Assembly (NCBI GenBank): GCA_963693095.2 | Contig: OY843768.1 | Coordinates: forward strand, 224,001 to 288,000 | Source of the DNA: Cenarchaeum sp. | GTDB lineage: Archaea; Thermoproteota; Nitrososphaeria; Nitrososphaerales; Nitrosopumilaceae | DNA length: 64,000 nucleotides | Direction: 5' to 3' | Notes under the pieces: generated by a model | The model's database searches: none | Told to the model about the DNA's origin: nothing | The model's input: the letters and a program-made list of their open reading frames with translations, nothing else | Translations under genes and position numbers: made by a program | Shown here: positions 56,315 through 64,000 of the stretch, piece after piece | Numbering within the stretch: position 1 is the first letter of the stretch | Layout: every line of letters starts with the position of its first letter

Positions 56315-56654
56315 GGAGCTTCACCCCAGTGCCTGCCGGATGCATCTCGGCGAGGCGCTCGATCGTGACGACGTCCCCGCCGGCTTCTCTGACCTTTGCG
56401 GCCGCCGCGCGCGAGACTGCAAATGCGCCAAGCGTCACGGCATGATCAATCCCGCCGGTCCCGAGAACCTTTCCGGGAACTGCGACGACATCGCTGGCCT
56501 TTGTGAGGCTTGCGATCTTGTTGACGTTCACGGTTCGGCGCGCGACTGTCGGCTTTAGGGCCTGCTCGGCCATGCGGGCCCATATGGGCGCGTCATTGCC
56601 GGCTGCTGCCTTTTTGAGGCGGCGGGCCATGTCGACGGTGTGCTGTGCTGCCAT
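56307..56654 (-). CDS. rpl18e: Ribosomal protein L18e
   Basis: APIW...RRTVNVNKI...VPGKVLGTG. Confidence 0.96.
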   Translation of the reverse strand: MAAQHTVDMARRLKKAAAGNDAPIWARMAEQALKPTVARRTVNVNKIASLTKASDVVAVPGKVLGTGGIDHAVTLGAFAVSRAAAAKVREAGGDVVTIERLAEMHPAGTGVKLLG

Positions 56655-56706
56655 CTGCGAGACCCCTCTCTGGCCCAAATGTAATATACCTTGCTAGGCG
56701 TTGGGC

Positions 56707-56821
56707 ATATGCGGTCCACGCCTATCTGCCCATTTGGTCATATGGGAGCGATCCTGTCGATCTACTTGGCCACTGCGGCGCCTGCCTGGGCATGAACTGG
56801 CATGGGGTGCTGACTCCACAC
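56707..56821 (+). mobile_element. IS66-derived MITE with near-perfect 8-bp TSD
   Basis: ...CTGCCCATTTGGTCATATGGGAGCGATCCTGTCGATCTAC...GGTGCTGACTCCACAC; flanks CGTTGGGC / CGTTGGTC. Confidence 0.8.
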
Positions 56822-57037
56822 CGTTGGTCTTACGCGTGCTCTGGGTGGGGGCCCAGGATGGTCTTTTGCGGCATAATTGCCCAAAACGCTCTTTTTCAGT
56901 TTTTGAAAGGGGTCGTCTGGACGTGTGTGGGGCCGTTTGCCGTCAGTCATCCGTGTCAAGCCTGTGGGGGACTAGTCTCTGCCCATGTGTCATCGTGAGT
57001 CTTGATGGTAACTTCACCAATGTTAGCGTGTGGCACG

Positions 57038-59563
57038 TCATGATTTCCTGACTTGGTCGGTTATTGAAGATTTTGTTCGTAATCTATCGCGTTCTTCCTC
57101 TATCTGATTATCAAACAACATCTTAAATGTGCCTTTTATTAGGCCATCTCTGATTGTTACGTGACCCCAATGATTGAATGCCCCTTCTAAAGCTTCTAGA
57201 ACATTCTTCTTGTATTCTGTATCGGGATTGTCTAAATGCTTGCCTTTGATCTCATATATGTGCAATTCTCTCTTTTTCATGTTTTTTCCAAATACTGCTA
57301 CGAAGTCGGGCCATATACGATCTTTTTTCCATCCGCGCAAATAATACTCTCCTTGCTCTTTGGCGGCGATCCTGTGCCACCATTCTATTGCGTCAGCTTC
57401 TTCTAAATATATCGCAAAGCTTTTTTCAGGTTCGGTATCAAAATGTTCTTTGTATACGGGATCAAACAAACTACGTTGAACCGATTGTGTGTTTACCGCC
57501 AATAGATTGTCTCCGCTACTAGAAACTGAATATTTTTTTTTCATTGTAAAATTATCACTTTCAATTTCTAAGTCAAATCTAATTTCTTTGTTTTTGATTT
57601 TATTTTTAAATATAGATTCAGCTTGCTTGATCACTTCATTAGATACATGTTCGTTGATTCTATTTGTAAATGTGTGGCGCATATTATATATGTCGTCATC
57701 ACTTTTTTTCGATTCACGAGCTTGGCGGATTGCATCTTGCACTATTCTAGAACCATGCCATTTGTTGGGAACAGTTTCTGAGATTATATTTACAATATCG
57801 TACATTCTAAGTGTTTTATCAACATGCACATCTTCTTTAATTCGCTTTTTGCTTAATTCATCATCGTTAATTTTTCCTTTTGTGGTCAAATTTGTAACAT
57901 CTATCCTGTGAGTCCATATAAAATCATCATAGGCTTCGATATCTGAGATATCGGGAGCTTTTATGGCATCCCATTTTATCTCGGATAGTATGTGCCTTTC
58001 ATAGTCAAGCTCGATCCACTGTTTTCCATATTTGTGCAATACTTTTGGCAAATATATTTTTGCTCGTGTGTGATTAGAACGCATATGTAATTCTTCTCGA
58101 CTGTGCCGTACATCATCTTCCAATGTTAGGCTGTTTGTGAGATCCCCTAGCCCTTCATTTTCGAGACCTTCCTTTATGTATTGGACGGATCTTTGCGTGG
58201 TGTCTGTTCTACAATACACATAGCATTGATTAAGATGTTTGTTATTTCGATATTTTTGATAAGGCTGTCGTAAAATTCTGCCTAGCATTTGAGTTATTGC
58301 AGTTTTGCTTTTTAGCTTATCGAGTATCACCAGTATGTACGCAAATGGGCAATCCCATCCTTCTTGTAATGCATTCTTTGTGATTACATATCTTATTGAT
58401 GATGTTTTTTCCATGAGTTCTATATCGCCTATTTCGTCCACTTCACTAGTTTTGACTGCGATGGAAGAGCTAGTTATGCTCATATTTTGTAAAAATTCTC
58501 GAACGTCTTCTGCATGTATGTGCTTTCCATCACGGTGCTCTGATCCTGTCCGTTCTACACGTATGAGCATTATGGGCCGTATGTATTCATCTTGCTCTTC
58601 TGCATTTTTGTCTAACCTGACCAGCTTATCATGCGCCATGACTAACACTTCTTCCCAACTTACACTTTCATCCACTGGCTTTACATTAATGGGCATCTTG
58701 ATCATCTCTTCTTTTTTTAATGCAACTCCACTTATATTTACAAGTATATTGCTTAATTTTGGGAACGGTGTTGCTGTGAGTTCAATAATCAAACTCGGTG
58801 ACATGTTATTGACATATGATATTATGTCATCTAATCTTCTACCATGTGTCTTGTGAGCTTCATCAAGTATTATCGTTGGATGTTGCATTTTAAATATGTT
58901 CATGAGGCTGTGTTTTATGTGCTGCCCATTGTTTTTATCAAGGTGTGGGGAGTGTTCTAAAATTTTGTTATTGGAGGCATCATCATCAATATCTGGGAAA
59001 AAACTTTGATATTGTCCAGAATCCCTATGAATTATCAAAAAATCTTTGCTTCGATTATCTGCACTTTGTTTCATAAGTACCATTATACATAAATATTGTT
59101 TTATATCTAATGGCGTTAAGGAATCATCCTTTTTCAACACTTTTACTCGGTTACCGCTCACTCTATCGAGACATTCTCGGATCATCCCATCTTTGTCATG
59201 CAAACTTTTTAAAGTTTGATGATATATTGACTTGGTAGGAACTATCCATATTATCAAACCTGTCGATCGTCTCACTCTTTCTAACATTGCGGCAGCCATT
59301 AGAGTCTTGCCTCCTCCAGTAGGAACTTTTAAACATATATGCGGTATGTGTTCTTTATCGCTACCGATTCGATCTCTGTACTGCCCTCTACCGATTGTTT
59401 CCCACACAGCCTTGGGATAATTTACAATAAATGAACCTCCGTCTCTGCCCAACTGTATCCGATTCTTGACATATTTGGTTTTTGCTATCATCAGGACATC
59501 ATGCCATTTTTGAAATTCGTCAAGTGCCTCGCTTTGATATTCTTTTAGCGCCAATCTCATCAC
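57038..59563 (-). CDS. res: Type III restriction enzyme Res subunit
   Basis: VPTGGGKT, ILDEAH, LQEGWDCP, QMLGRILR and a C-terminal WPDF...EIKG nuclease motif; AT-rich. Confidence 0.92.
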   Translation of the reverse strand: MMRLALKEYQSEALDEFQKWHDVLMIAKTKYVKNRIQLGRDGGSFIVNYPKAVWETIGRGQYRDRIGSDKEHIPHICLKVPTGGGKTLMAAAMLERVRRSTGLIIWIVPTKSIYHQTLKSLHDKDGMIRECLDRVSGNRVKVLKKDDSLTPLDIKQYLCIMVLMKQSADNRSKDFLIIHRDSGQYQSFFPDIDDDASNNKILEHSPHLDKNNGQHIKHSLMNIFKMQHPTIILDEAHKTHGRRLDDIISYVNNMSPSLIIELTATPFPKLSNILVNISGVALKKEEMIKMPINVKPVDESVSWEEVLVMAHDKLVRLDKNAEEQDEYIRPIMLIRVERTGSEHRDGKHIHAEDVREFLQNMSITSSSIAVKTSEVDEIGDIELMEKTSSIRYVITKNALQEGWDCPFAYILVILDKLKSKTAITQMLGRILRQPYQKYRNNKHLNQCYVYCRTDTTQRSVQYIKEGLENEGLGDLTNSLTLEDDVRHSREELHMRSNHTRAKIYLPKVLHKYGKQWIELDYERHILSEIKWDAIKAPDISDIEAYDDFIWTHRIDVTNLTTKGKINDDELSKKRIKEDVHVDKTLRMYDIVNIISETVPNKWHGSRIVQDAIRQARESKKSDDDIYNMRHTFTNRINEHVSNEVIKQAESIFKNKIKNKEIRFDLEIESDNFTMKKKYSVSSSGDNLLAVNTQSVQRSLFDPVYKEHFDTEPEKSFAIYLEEADAIEWWHRIAAKEQGEYYLRGWKKDRIWPDFVAVFGKNMKKRELHIYEIKGKHLDNPDTEYKKNVLEALEGAFNHWGHVTIRDGLIKGTFKMLFDNQIEEERDRLRTKSSITDQVRKS

Positions 59564-61285
59564 ATTCTCTTATTGATATAGTCAGGTATTCTACAAAATT
59601 GTATATTCATTTTTTTAAGTTCGCTTTGACTCATATTCTTCGATGCGGCGAAGATTATTGCGTCTCTTCCTTTCCTGTGTATTCTTTGACTCATACCTTC
59701 ACTCAACACTGCTGCGTTACTTTGCATATATTTCACATTTGGTTTATATAATAAATAATAATCAATATTTTCATGAGAATAAAATAATCCGTCTTTTCCG
59801 GGTCGTAATTTTGTATTCGTTATAATTACATTGGAAATATAAAGAAGATGAGATGCTAAATCAGAATAATCGGGTAATATTTCTCCAGTGAGCATCTTCT
59901 CCCTGTCTATTGGTTTTCCTAGTGTGTAATATGAAAATGACCCACCAGTACCACTTTTCAATTCTGGCTTTTTAGATTTTGGCATCCCTTTGATCACTCT
60001 GCGCATTCGTTCTGCTGTAATTTTATTGGCATATTTCTCTCGTTCAATTAATATGAATTTTCGATGCCCGTTATCTTCCTTATTTAATGACAACACTGCG
60101 TGTGCTGTTATTCCACTCCCTGCAAAAGAATCCAGTATGATATCATCTGATTCAGTGATCAATCTCAAAAGCGTTTTGATAACTGACACATCTTTTGGGT
60201 TAGGAAAATCGCTCCCTTTTAATATTTCTTGCAATTCCTTTTTTGCTGCCCTCCTATCTTTATATAACACACTTGTTAATACTTGCCCCTCTGTTTCATG
60301 TAAATATCTTTTTAGTGTTGGAACTCTTGTCTCATCATCTCCAAAATATATTTTTTGTTCTGCAATCATTTCTAACATTTTCTTCTTACTTGCAAATCTC
60401 CACCCCCTCGATGGTGTTTTTACTGGTTTTTTTGTTTTAGGGTGTAGAATTTCATAATGTGGTCCTCCTCCGGGTGATGATATGTCGCCTGAAAAAAATA
60501 CTCCTTTTTCGTCGACTTTATTGTAATGTCTGTTTGCCCATTCGGGTTCTGTCCTCTGCACATTTGAATACCATGTTTTCAACTCGGCACTTATTTTTTT
60601 GAAATCGGATTTGTGTTTTTTCTTAAGTTTTTCTACCTGTTTATATACATTATCAATACCCAATTTATTCAATCTCCATTTAGTTTTCAATTCTCTGAGA
60701 TGGTTTTTATTCTTTGCGTAACACAAAATATAATCATGAGACACTGAAAAAAATTTAGAATCGTTTTTTCCTGTTCCTTCCCAAACTAATTCAGCCATAA
60801 AATTATTTTCTCCAAAAATTTCGTCCATTATAATTTTAAGTCGTGCTTGTTCATTATCATCAATTGAAATCAAAATTATCCCAGATTCGGCAAGGAGTTC
60901 TCTGAGTAGTTGAAGTCTGGGCCACATCATACACAGCCATTTATCGTGCCTTTGTATGTCCTCCTCGCCCACAATTTTCCCTAACCAGTCTTTTAGGACT
61001 GGATGATTGACATTATCGTCGTATGACCATCCGCCCCCCCCCCCTGACAAGATCTTTATGGGTATGGCCAGTGTTGTATGGTGGATCAATATAGACACAA
61101 TTAATTTTATTACGGTACTGTGGTAATAGTGCTTTTAATGCGTCAAGATTATCACCGTGAATAATCATGTTGTCGTTGTTGGTGGGATTGCATGATTTTG
61201 CTTTGTCCATAACCAAATTTCTCGGAGGAATTGTTAGATGAAGGCTATGTATGATTTCTTTTCCATAAAACCTAAACTCAGTCAT
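59560..61285 (-). pseudogene. mod: Type III Mod adenine methyltransferase frameshifted at a G11 tract (candidate phase-variable gene)
   Basis: N-part IIHGDNL...YIDPPYNTG and C-part GWSYDDN...HDKWLCMMWPRL...ISIDDNE...LDSFAGSG are in different frames, joined at the C11 run at 61034-61044. Confidence 0.9.
61034..61044 (-). repeat. Poly-G11 simple sequence repeat within mod
   Basis: Eleven consecutive C on the + strand inside an AT-rich gene. Confidence 0.95.
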
Positions 61286-61464
61286 GGTGTGCGTCTCGTT
61301 TTAACGTGGTTGCCTGCCTTCCAGCATGGCATCTTGTATATCCTTGCTTGAACATGTCCGCGAACTGAGGTGGAATCATTTGAGATGCGCTATTTGCTGT
61401 GCTTGGTATTGCTTTTGCTCTAAACACAGGTATGGTGTTGTCTGAGCACATGCCGCCCACGCAA

Positions 61465-62103
61465 TCACGAGGCCGCAGGAGCGGCCTTTATGCCCTCGAC
61501 GACGTCGCGAAAGTCCTCTAGCCTGATCTGCAGCTCGTCGATCGCCGCCGAGAGTATCTGTGAGGGCTCTAGTGCGCCAGTCGACTCTACTGTGAGGAGG
61601 TGCTCGTCATCAGAGTCGCCCTCGGTGAGGACGGCAATGTTTGCCGAGTTCCACTTTGCGTGCTCTGTGCCGCGCCCGAGGCGCGCGTACGCCTCGACCT
61701 TTACCTTTTGGCCAGGCGCGAGCTGGACTATGGGTATCTTGTCAGATGACGGCTTTACGTACGCGTCTTGTGAGGTCATGTCGCCAGAGAGTATCGTGCG
61801 CGTCTCGTCGGCCACCTCGTCGATGACTAGCATGACCCTGTTTGCGGACTCGTTGACGTCGATCTCGCGGATGTTCTTGAACTCTGTGAGGTCTGTCTTT
61901 AGCGGAATTAGGCCCAGGCGGTGCGCGAGCGCCTCGTCTGGCAGCGATGACGTGTTCTCAACGACGTCGACTGCGTCCACGGCAAACACCATGATCCCGT
62001 TGAGGCATATTCTGCGCAGCGCGTTTGCGTACTGGAGGGGGATGCCCTTGAGGCGTGCAGTTGCGCGACCGCCCTCCTCCTCTGCTATCTCTATAGATGC
62101 CAT
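61465..62103 (-). CDS. rpoD: DNA-directed RNA polymerase subunit D (Rpo3)
   Basis: ANALRRI, NTSSLPDE.LAHRLGLIPL, ARLGRGTEHAKW, VESTG. Confidence 0.96.
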   Translation of the reverse strand: MASIEIAEEEGGRATARLKGIPLQYANALRRICLNGIMVFAVDAVDVVENTSSLPDEALAHRLGLIPLKTDLTEFKNIREIDVNESANRVMLVIDEVADETRTILSGDMTSQDAYVKPSSDKIPIVQLAPGQKVKVEAYARLGRGTEHAKWNSANIAVLTEGDSDDEHLLTVESTGALEPSQILSAAIDELQIRLEDFRDVVEGIKAAPAAS

Positions 62104-62413
62104 CTTGCATCCCAAAATGCCCTGATCTCCCCATAAATACCTACTAGGGGCACGCGCGATCCCTGGCGGCATCTGAGGCCCGTGGGGGATCGGGACGGCC
62201 GGCGCGCAGGCCCGGCCACCGCGGCACGCCGCGACGGCACGCGCCGACGAACACCGTGCGGCACCGCGTGGACCGCGGGCCGTGCTGGTGCGATGGGCGC
62301 ATGGGGGTGGAGGCCGTGGCCGAGGCGGTCATGCGCGCGGTCTAGGCGCCGACCTCATGCTGGCAGGTTTGTCCACTGGTTAAATAGACAATTCCGGCGC
62401 CCCCGCCTGTAGA

Positions 62414-64000
62414 ATGTCCGGACAAGCAGGCAAGACAACAAGCGTGTTCCTAATGGCGATCATGGTCGCCGGGGGGCTCACCTTTGCGATTCCCGGCGCG
62501 CCGCCGGCGATTGCCCAGTCGACAAACCCCAACCTCTACGTCTCGGCCGAGAGCGCGGCATTTGGAAACCACTTTTCTGGCCCCCAGGTCGTCGAGGTCG
62601 TCATCATAGACCCGGACCTCGACGAGACCAACGAGTCAAAGGGAGAGCCCGACGTCACGATAAACGGCAGCAGTCTGCGCATGGTCCAGGCGACTGACGG
62701 CAAGTGGTACGCCTACTTTGCCAACAGTGCGCAGGCACTACTGGCCGACGCGACTGCCGACGGCAACGCGGGCCGGGGCCTAGACTTTGGGACCATATGC
62801 GAGGACACCGACGACGCGGATCGCGTCCTTGAGACTGCGCTTGAGGTCAACGCGGGATACTATAACGTCAACACGGGGTACCATGATGCCAACGCGGGAT
62901 ACTTCTCTGACGCCATCGCCGTGGCGTTCCCGTTCGCGCATATGCGGTACACGGTCGCCAGCGGCGGCGCGGCAGGGCCGGCGCTGTCCTCGATATGGGG
63001 GTGCGGCGCAGATGACGTCACCGCCGCTTTCACGGCCGTCCCCCCAGCGCCGCCAACTGCCGCCGGCACGCACAACTATGCCGGCGTGTCGATGAACGTC
63101 GTGCGCGAGCCCAGCGCCATAAACATTGCCACTTACACTTACAATCCCAATTACCCCCACAACAGCTTTGGCCAGAGCATACAGATGGGCGATGTGGAGC
63201 CAAACGCCGAGGCGACAGCCGGGGTCTGGCCGTTCATACAGCTCTTCGACTTCAGCCAGGGCGGCAACGTCGAGGTCCAGTACCGCCGCGGCGGCGGCAT
63301 CCAGTCAGTCACGCTCAACTACGACACGATCGATGACTATGCGTCGCTCTCGCTCCTGGACCGCACGACGTACCCCGGCGGCGGCGCGCAGGTCCGCCTT
63401 GGCATGGCCAACACGTGGCTCAACGTTGACCCCACGGACAAGGACTCGTGGACGTGGGACGTCGAGGGCGGCGGCGTGGGTGGGGTGCTCTACGGTGCTT
63501 TTGACAGGAACGGCGCGCGCCAGGGGGGCGGTGCCGACCTGTCAGGCGAGCTGGCCGGCCTAATGTGCGCCGGCAACTGCGTGCCGGCGTTGGGCAGGGA
63601 CGCCGGCGGCTCCCACGTCCTGTCCCTTGCGGGCGGCACCTCCCTGGTCCTGTCCGGCACGGACGATGCTGCGGCAGCAGACCAGCTGGTCACGGTCACC
63701 GAGACGCAGGATGCCTCGGGCATCTTTGAGGGCACCGTCATATTCCCGCCCGCCGACCAGTCACCCGGCCACCGCCCAGGGGTCGCCAAGGGCGACACGG
63801 TGACGGCGCGCCATGGCGAGCACGCGCTGCCGGGCACTCACGCGCGCAACGACGGGCTCAAGCTCGAGGGCACGACGATATCCGGCACGCTCGTGCCCCT
63901 GCTAGAGAGGGCCGTCGTGAGCAACGTTCGCCTGACTGACAACTCGGGCAACCCGCTTGACACCGTCACCGTCGGCCAGCAGATCCAGGTGGTCGGCCAG
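62414..64000 (+). CDS. S-layer protein paralog, Nitrosopumilus SLP type (runs off the window; not in the ORF track)
   Basis: MSGQAGKTTSVFLMAIMVAGGLTFAIPG...NLYVSAE...GPQVVEVV..DPD...KGEPDVTING..LRMVQATDGKWYAYFA; frame reads open to the window end. Confidence 0.85.
   Translation, partial: MSGQAGKTTSVFLMAIMVAGGLTFAIPGAPPAIAQSTNPNLYVSAESAAFGNHFSGPQVVEVVIIDPDLDETNESKGEPDVTINGSSLRMVQATDGKWYAYFANSAQALLADATADGNAGRGLDFGTICEDTDDADRVLETALEVNAGYYNVNTGYHDANAGYFSDAIAVAFPFAHMRYTVASGGAAGPALSSIWGCGADDVTAAFTAVPPAPPTAAGTHNYAGVSMNVVREPSAINIATYTYNPNYPHNSFGQSIQMGDVEPNAEATAGVWPFIQLFDFSQGGNVEVQYRRGGGIQSVTLNYDTIDDYASLSLLDRTTYPGGGAQVRLGMANTWLNVDPTDKDSWTWDVEGGGVGGVLYGAFDRNGARQGGGADLSGELAGLMCAGNCVPALGRDAGGSHVLSLAGGTSLVLSGTDDAAAADQLVTVTETQDASGIFEGTVIFPPADQSPGHRPGVAKGDTVTARHGEHALPGTHARNDGLKLEGTTISGTLVPLLERAVVSNVRLTDNSGNPLDTVTVGQQIQVVGQ

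Follow-up and report, generated by a model that had tools for sequence, protein, structure and literature searches.

A candidate phase-variation switch in a predicted type III methyltransferase gene of an archaeal genome with fifteen long G/C tracts

A predicted type III restriction-modification system, consisting of a methyltransferase gene (mod) followed by a helicase-nuclease gene (res), was found in the window, the whole stretch of 64,000 nucleotides (nt) of Cenarchaeum sp. DNA analyzed here (NCBI GenBank assembly GCA_963693095.2, contig OY843768.1, positions 224,001 to 288,000), and the mod gene was broken at a single point, by a run of eleven G residues. We put at about one half the probability that this G11 run is a slippage-driven ON/OFF switch, caught in its OFF state. 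The reading is carried by the anatomy of the locus, by the rarity of such tracts against the genome background, by differences in tract length between two sister species and by the purifying selection on a second, similarly interrupted mod gene of the same genome. That the mod tract does switch, and what use such a switch would serve, we infer from these features.

The mod gene spans positions 61285 to 59560 on the minus strand (1726 bp), and its sole break is the run at 61034-61044, which reads C11 on the plus strand and G11 on the coding strand. The first frame, from an ATG at 61285 to a stop at 61013, encodes 90 amino acids (aa) ending in IDPPYNTGHTHKDLVRGGGRMVIRR directly before the stop; this product holds the catalytic motif IV (DPPY) and terminates seven codons past the tract. 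The second frame is open from upstream of the tract to the stop at 59560, and the remainder of the gene that it encodes (59560..61033, minus strand, beginning WSYDDN) matched PF01555 (6.9e-32) and PADLOC MTase_III and retained the S-adenosylmethionine (AdoMet) motif FxGxG as FAGSG. When one base was skipped at the tract, the two frames were joined through DLVRGGGGWSYDDNVNH into a read-through of 574 residues with the features of a type III Mod: the beta-class N6-adenine methyltransferase domain of PF01555 with both DPPY and the AdoMet motif, a PADLOC MTase_III match of 1.2e-114 and, over read-through residues 1-332, to which the comparison with solved structures was confined, a match of 6.7e-51 to the EcoP15I Mod structure (PDB 4ZCF). 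A tract of G10 or G13 gives an intact 574-aa Mod frame, so that gain or loss of a unit shifts the frame of an otherwise intact gene, as in contingency loci. The first-pass annotation of this DNA had described the same arrangement, with a break only at the G11 just after DPPY, a stop soon after the tract, and an intact protein at G10 with G13 also in frame; frames and read-through agreed with it, and all of its coordinates and counts held.

Another way of obtaining a working Mod from the assembled sequence, a split enzyme made of two polypeptides, was considered and rejected. It would need a start for the second frame, and there is none after the tract; initiation at a GTG at 61098 would place 24 junk residues before the tract-distal part, in a product without DPPY. 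Motif IV is likewise missing from the annotated 455-aa product.

The res gene (57038..59563, minus strand) encodes an uninterrupted protein of 841 aa. Its GTG start overlaps the TGA of mod by 4 bp, as had been noted before (an alternative ATG one codon later would leave an overlap of 1 bp). The protein matched PF04851 (4e-16) and PADLOC REase_III (1.1e-145, profile positions 76-844 of 883), and thus the superfamily-2 helicase (ResIII) and the nuclease of a type III Res adjoin mod, the nuclease motif being recognized by profile coverage only. Judged by these profiles, mod-res is a type III restriction-modification system, with predicted methylation and cleavage activity. Type III Res proteins need Mod for target recognition and are inert on their own; hence, the OFF state would be harmless. 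An A9 run was also present within res (T9 on the plus strand, 57533-57541), in frame as assembled; on contig C1 of this genome (G000), A/T runs of at least 9 nt number only three, this one included.

The G11 run falls within a segment of nine residues, HKDLVRGGG (residues 76-84; about 27 nt at 61034..61060, minus strand, with limits ambiguous by a few bases). The read-through, with X at the break, was aligned with 103 homologs, namely those of 540-600 aa among the 119 best matches, the length filter having removed 16. The segment occupies columns in which none of the 103 homologs has a residue, and it was also missing from 17 of 17 homologs in a hand-picked set. These alignments support the earlier suggestion that the segment is an insertion relative to the usual DPPYNTG homologs, and by their measure the insertion is lineage-specific. 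At G10 it comprises 27 nt and is in frame, which suggests a gene built to work with the tract. Since the solved Mods EcoP15I and 6K0W differ in length within the stretch after DPPYNTG, an extra loop at this place is plausible. Of the homologs that carry a name, the nearest was the 'adenine specific DNA methylase [Cenarchaeum symbiosum A]' (P0005), with 58% identity across 95% of the query; it is likewise archaeal and has neither the insertion nor a tract at the homologous site. Further decay, which the first-pass annotation had associated with a simple pseudogene, was not seen: the read-through retains 145 of the 156 columns conserved at 90% or more among the 103 homologs, res is intact, and no second lesion was found in the 1726 bp of mod or the 2526 bp of res.

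Long G/C runs form a class of their own in this genome. On contig C1, 428 G/C runs of 6 nt, 43 of 7 nt, 4 of 8 nt and none of 9 nt were counted, together with 15 runs of 10-21 nt. From a log-linear decay fitted to runs of 4-8 nt, 0.85 runs of 9 nt and 0.15 of at least 10 nt would be expected, and the A/T runs of the same contig fall off smoothly (637, 161, 25, 2 and 1). The 15 tracts therefore lie beyond the genome background in length, and, with the island around mod at 37-48% G+C, the description of the G11 as anomalous in an AT-rich gene was borne out. Two of the 15 tracts, both of 11 nt, are in the two type III-like mod genes of the genome; the other PF01555 genes carry none (0/3). A G10 at C1:329750 lies in a gene for a DUF4344 secreted peptidase-like protein, where it parts the frame of the signal peptide from the mature portion, and a C11 at C1:1812968 follows a TATA-like AAATATA and precedes the ATG of a gene with a GmrSD_N domain. 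Furthermore, six tracts of 14-21 nt (C1 337054, 493170, 515985, 766200, 776010 and 1324331) precede genes for secreted proteins, each tract being located 35-50 nt ahead of a TTATATA-like box and the start codon ATG; the six proteins have 816-899 aa, signal peptides and Ig-like domains and are mutually divergent. Nine of the 15 tracts are not intragenic, and five are without an assigned gene. Restriction systems and surface proteins are the classical content of bacterial contingency repertoires.

Among the six secreted proteins, two are paralogs with 77% identity, encoded about 9.8 kb apart. Just beyond one of these two genes, an A10 (C1:777598-777607) and an A9 (777660-777668) are separated by 60 nt and share near-identical flanks (gcgttttg...tcacac). 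The tracts at C1:1324331 and 1328123 (L010; L069 in the sister species G012) abut a perfect palindrome, GATCAGG(G/C)CCTGATC, which is conserved in both species and at both paralogous sites and may be a transcription-factor site.

The second type III-like system is located in another island, of 30-39% G+C. Its mod gene (C1:145790-148321, L004; MTase_III, 844-852 aa, 9.3e-137) carries a C11 at 148289 and is followed by a res gene for a 902-aa ResIII protein (C1:143051-145759, L068); the copy in G012 is 95.6% identical. The C11 comes 12 codons after the only upstream ATG and puts the frame off in both G000 and G012, the next start of the long frame being 81 codons downstream, beyond the conserved N-terminal motif. 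Over 852 codons, the two copies were separated by 114 substitutions and no stops, with a dS (synonymous divergence) of 0.16 and a ratio of nonsynonymous to synonymous divergence (dN/dS) of 0.12, and this comparison indicates that the second mod is under purifying selection. A tract-interrupted mod is thus kept functional in the lineage and must be expressed at least for part of the time or by slippage. The first 300 nt of the gene hold five differences only, too few to place the translation start.

In relatives, a 5' poly-C was present in 4 of the 7 genes of this methyltransferase (MTase) family that were inspected, from four genomes (C11, C11, C26 and C22/C31). Of the paralogous or homologous MTase genes, one (L061, G012:C1:277121-281104) has a C26 right after the ATG, which is out of frame and would need 24 or 27, and one at a contig end (L067, G033:C22) shows C31-T-C22 at the contig break. 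A simple repeat of another kind was observed instead at another of the seven (L064, G028:C1:615500-619800), which encodes an 863-aa MTase and is preceded, at a distance of about 50 nt, by at least seven tandem copies, (TTACTCACTC)n.

Tract lengths were compared between G000 and G012, which share 92-96% DNA identity across the tract loci. Five of the six tracts common to both genomes differed in length, with conserved flanks: 16 nt in G000 against 19 in G012 at C1 766200, 18 against 17 at 776010, 18 against 19 at 1324331, 13 against 16 at 1328123, and about 7 (12 alignment gaps) against 19 near 1326040. The sixth, the tract of the second mod at 148289, measured 11 in both. For two further tract loci of G000 no counterpart was found in G012.

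MutS_V (PF00488) and NucS_C (PF01939) domains were not found in the genome, which is 99.55% complete, and the controls responded. Long G runs are unstable in bacteria without MutS/MutL, and those of the present genome should be unstable as well, given that no MutS or NucS domain was found. Slippage of the archaeal polymerases PolB and PolD has been reported in vitro on structured templates (PMC4134008).

The host genome measures 2.0 Mb in two contigs, with 60% G+C. Its small-subunit ribosomal RNA (SSU) locus scored 1457.6 bits with the archaeal model and 1098.5 with the bacterial one, an archaeal amoA was present (389 bits), and mcrA was not found in the genome. The island is bordered on its native high-G+C side by a host gene, that of archaeal RNA polymerase subunit D (61465..62172, minus strand). 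Because of the SSU score, amoA and this flanking gene, the host is, by its gene content, an ammonia-oxidising archaeon, and the archaeal origin assumed by the first-pass annotation was confirmed. The island itself, at 56-62 kb of the window, has 37-48% G+C against about 63% in its surroundings. In 3 of the 4 public runs holding the locus, a contig joint from 56701 to 61460 omits it, bypassing the stretch 56702..61459, of which the low-G+C part is the mod-res island. Its depth was 1/5 to 1/10 of the flank depth in the four runs (X1-X4), and at 56500-56800 and 61460-62500 these runs contained variant contigs that were about 3-6% different and several-fold deeper. By the low island depth and the joint, a close relative that is more abundant in these samples lacks the island. 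The 4 other genomes of the genus yielded no mod-res ortholog, and in 100 genomes of the family the best DNA match reached 65% identity. The island was probably acquired horizontally; no convincing direct repeats or integration scars were found at its ends.

Several results weigh against a switch at mod. The contigs crossing the tract (in X1, X2 and X4 with a start at 56717 or 56806 and an end near 61525, about 4.7-4.8 kb; 57368-61525 in X3, about 4.2 kb) carried G11 in 4/4 public runs, with no differences, gaps or indels. By these contigs G11 appears real, and G10, G12 or G13 was seen in none of the four. Contigs suppress minor variants, so that a uniform G11 is still compatible with heterogeneity, and the four runs come from one study and may include the data of the source sample. 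No ON-length protein was found among 5.8 billion clustered proteins, in which the sole near-identical match was the 455-aa fragment of the window itself and the next was 58% identical. Metagenome contigs were also scanned with exact-flank patterns for alternative alleles of the mod tract and of the second mod tract; neither scan gave a match, in records that may omit the genome of the window. Since the mod gene has no ortholog in the four genus genomes, dN/dS and length variation are not computable at the locus itself. The single intragenic tract comparable between species, that of the second mod, is 11 in both, and the intragenic tracts examined are out of frame in 5/5 cases. Additionally, the called lengths of runs of 16-21 nt may carry sequencing error, which does not explain the case of 7 against 19.

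Hence, the ON/OFF switch claimed by the first-pass annotation stood in part. The anatomy of the locus, the set of 15 tracts, the length differences at 5/6 shared tracts, the dN/dS of 0.12 in the sister mod and the negative search for MutS and NucS domains speak for it, and this genome-wide context strengthens the idea of a slippage switch; the uniform G11 and the missing ON allele speak against it.

The most serious alternative, which we regard as unlikely although far from negligible, is a plain recent pseudogene, in which a frameshift occurred at the G run, or was made together with it, after the island was gained, the state being effectively fixed and res surviving only for lack of time. 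The G11 in the contigs of 4/4 runs and the fruitless search for an ON allele agree with it; the absence of the island from the co-occurring relative and from the four genus genomes would make it young and dispensable, and res without mod is harmless, so that no selection for repair would act. Nevertheless, neither gene shows a second lesion, and an 11-G run in a gene of 37% G+C, placed in an insertion whose length at G10 keeps the frame, does not resemble a random inactivating mutation. A like run also occurs in the other type III-like mod of the same genome, which is under purifying selection.

It seems improbable that G11 is fixed and the gene yet expressed, with RNA polymerase slippage or ribosomal frameshifting giving some full-length Mod and the tract setting a low constitutive level. 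In bacteria and endosymbionts, slippage of transcription on long homopolymers is an established phenomenon, and a second mod which keeps an out-of-frame 11 in two species under purifying selection fits this explanation equally well as switching. However, none of the public runs with the stretch is on record as RNA, and this explanation would account neither for the tracts upstream of promoters nor for the differing lengths in the two species. Least probable is a sequencing or assembly miscount of a true G10 or G13 in a gene that is simply intact: homopolymers are the commonest site of consensus errors, and G11 is known only through the assembly and the contigs of one study, possibly the same data, but separate contig builds of four runs reproduced island and tract with 0 differences, this repetition of G11 argues against a miscount, and the homopolymers of the genome show no spread at 8-9 nt as a homopolymer-error platform would give.

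Under the switch reading, mod and then res would have been acquired horizontally and would be translationally coupled, with the G11 in an inserted surface loop that directly follows the catalytic DPPY. Strand slippage during replication would add or remove one G. A tract of G10 or G13 would allow the full 574-aa Mod to be made, giving methylation and, with Res, restriction (ON); G11 or G12 would leave a 90-aa stub and no methylation (OFF), and the sequenced population would be OFF. Within the population as a whole, the costs of the ON state, namely the risk of self-restriction and hindered gene uptake, would be balanced against its benefit, virus defence. The mod tract would then be one member of a genome-wide repertoire of contingency loci in defence and secreted-protein genes. 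A defence ON/OFF switch of this kind is more economical than a phasevarion, in which methylation would control a regulon.

Poly-G/C contingency loci are well known in Campylobacter jejuni and Helicobacter pylori, where they affect surface-structure and restriction-modification genes in genomes without MutS/MutL. The present genome resembles these in that its homopolymer lengths are bimodally distributed and its long G/C runs gather in such genes, and differs in that 9 of its 15 tracts are not intragenic, six being upstream of an archaeal TATA-like box, and that the tracts are longer (up to 21 nt). EcoP15I shares with the system described here the DPPY motif, the mod-res gene order and homology over the N-terminal 332 residues; it has no homopolymer, is constitutively expressed, and differs in the length and sequence of the segment after DPPYNTG. 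The bacterial phase-variable mod genes as described in a published survey (among others modA of Haemophilus and Neisseria and modH of H. pylori; PMC5909438) also combine a Mod of the PF01555/EcoP15I kind, an in-frame simple repeat whose length change switches translation, and a Mod-dependent Res downstream. Like the archaeal genome, theirs contain more repeat-bearing surface or defence genes, apparently without mismatch repair. In contrast, the host here is archaeal, and the tract is placed mid-gene after motif IV, in a private nine-residue insertion, and not in the 5' region; moreover, switching and regulons are established for modA and modH, whereas the present system is known from its sequence alone.

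No description of a repeat-switched archaeal methyltransferase or of an archaeal phase-variation switch was found in full-text literature searches, the coverage of which leaves out subscription journals, and the statement of the first-pass annotation that no archaeal phasevarion had been described held within this coverage. In the accessible text of two surveys of archaeal restriction-modification, phase-variable systems appear only as bacterial work or in the references (PMC10609329, PMC11033074). Archaea go unmentioned in the main text of the survey of type III mod genes (Atack et al., 2018; PMC5909438), and its supplement contained no occurrence of any of six prefixes of archaeal genus names. 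A 2025 review, in the portion available, lists the archaeal distribution of phase variation as future work (PMC11868660). A 2025 preprint (10.1101/2025.10.21.683753), as far as its available text goes, speaks of contingency loci as having been studied in archaea and cites references 13-15, of which 13 and 14 are reviews, one bacterial and the other on repetitive elements.

More tentatively, and at rather less than even odds, this clade of ammonia-oxidising archaea may possess a multi-locus poly-G/C contingency system, the first in Archaea, in which slippage-prone tracts would gate by frame both type III systems, a type IV-like nuclease gene and a secreted peptidase gene, and would gate large secreted surface proteins via promoter-upstream tracts, the population thereby hedging its bets in defence and at the surface in the manner of host-adapted bacteria. 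So far, phase variation driven by slippage has been regarded as belonging to bacteria, for the most part to pathogens and commensals. If the mod locus and its 14 sister tracts switch, archaea would share the same bet-hedging logic for virus defence and the cell surface, and the tracts upstream of promoters would offer a new handle on archaeal transcription control. Genes split by homopolymers in archaeal assemblies should accordingly not be dismissed as pseudogenes or errors.

Runs of G11 or longer were detected in 39 of 101 sampled genomes of the family, among them one unpublished genome (G077). All genomes of 6 of the 27 genera were positive, and none in 12 genera. Four family genomes of 2.1-3.9 Mb (G033, G052, G071 and G089) each contained several hundred positions matching G11, which corresponds to the order of a hundred long tracts per genome, far above the number in G000.

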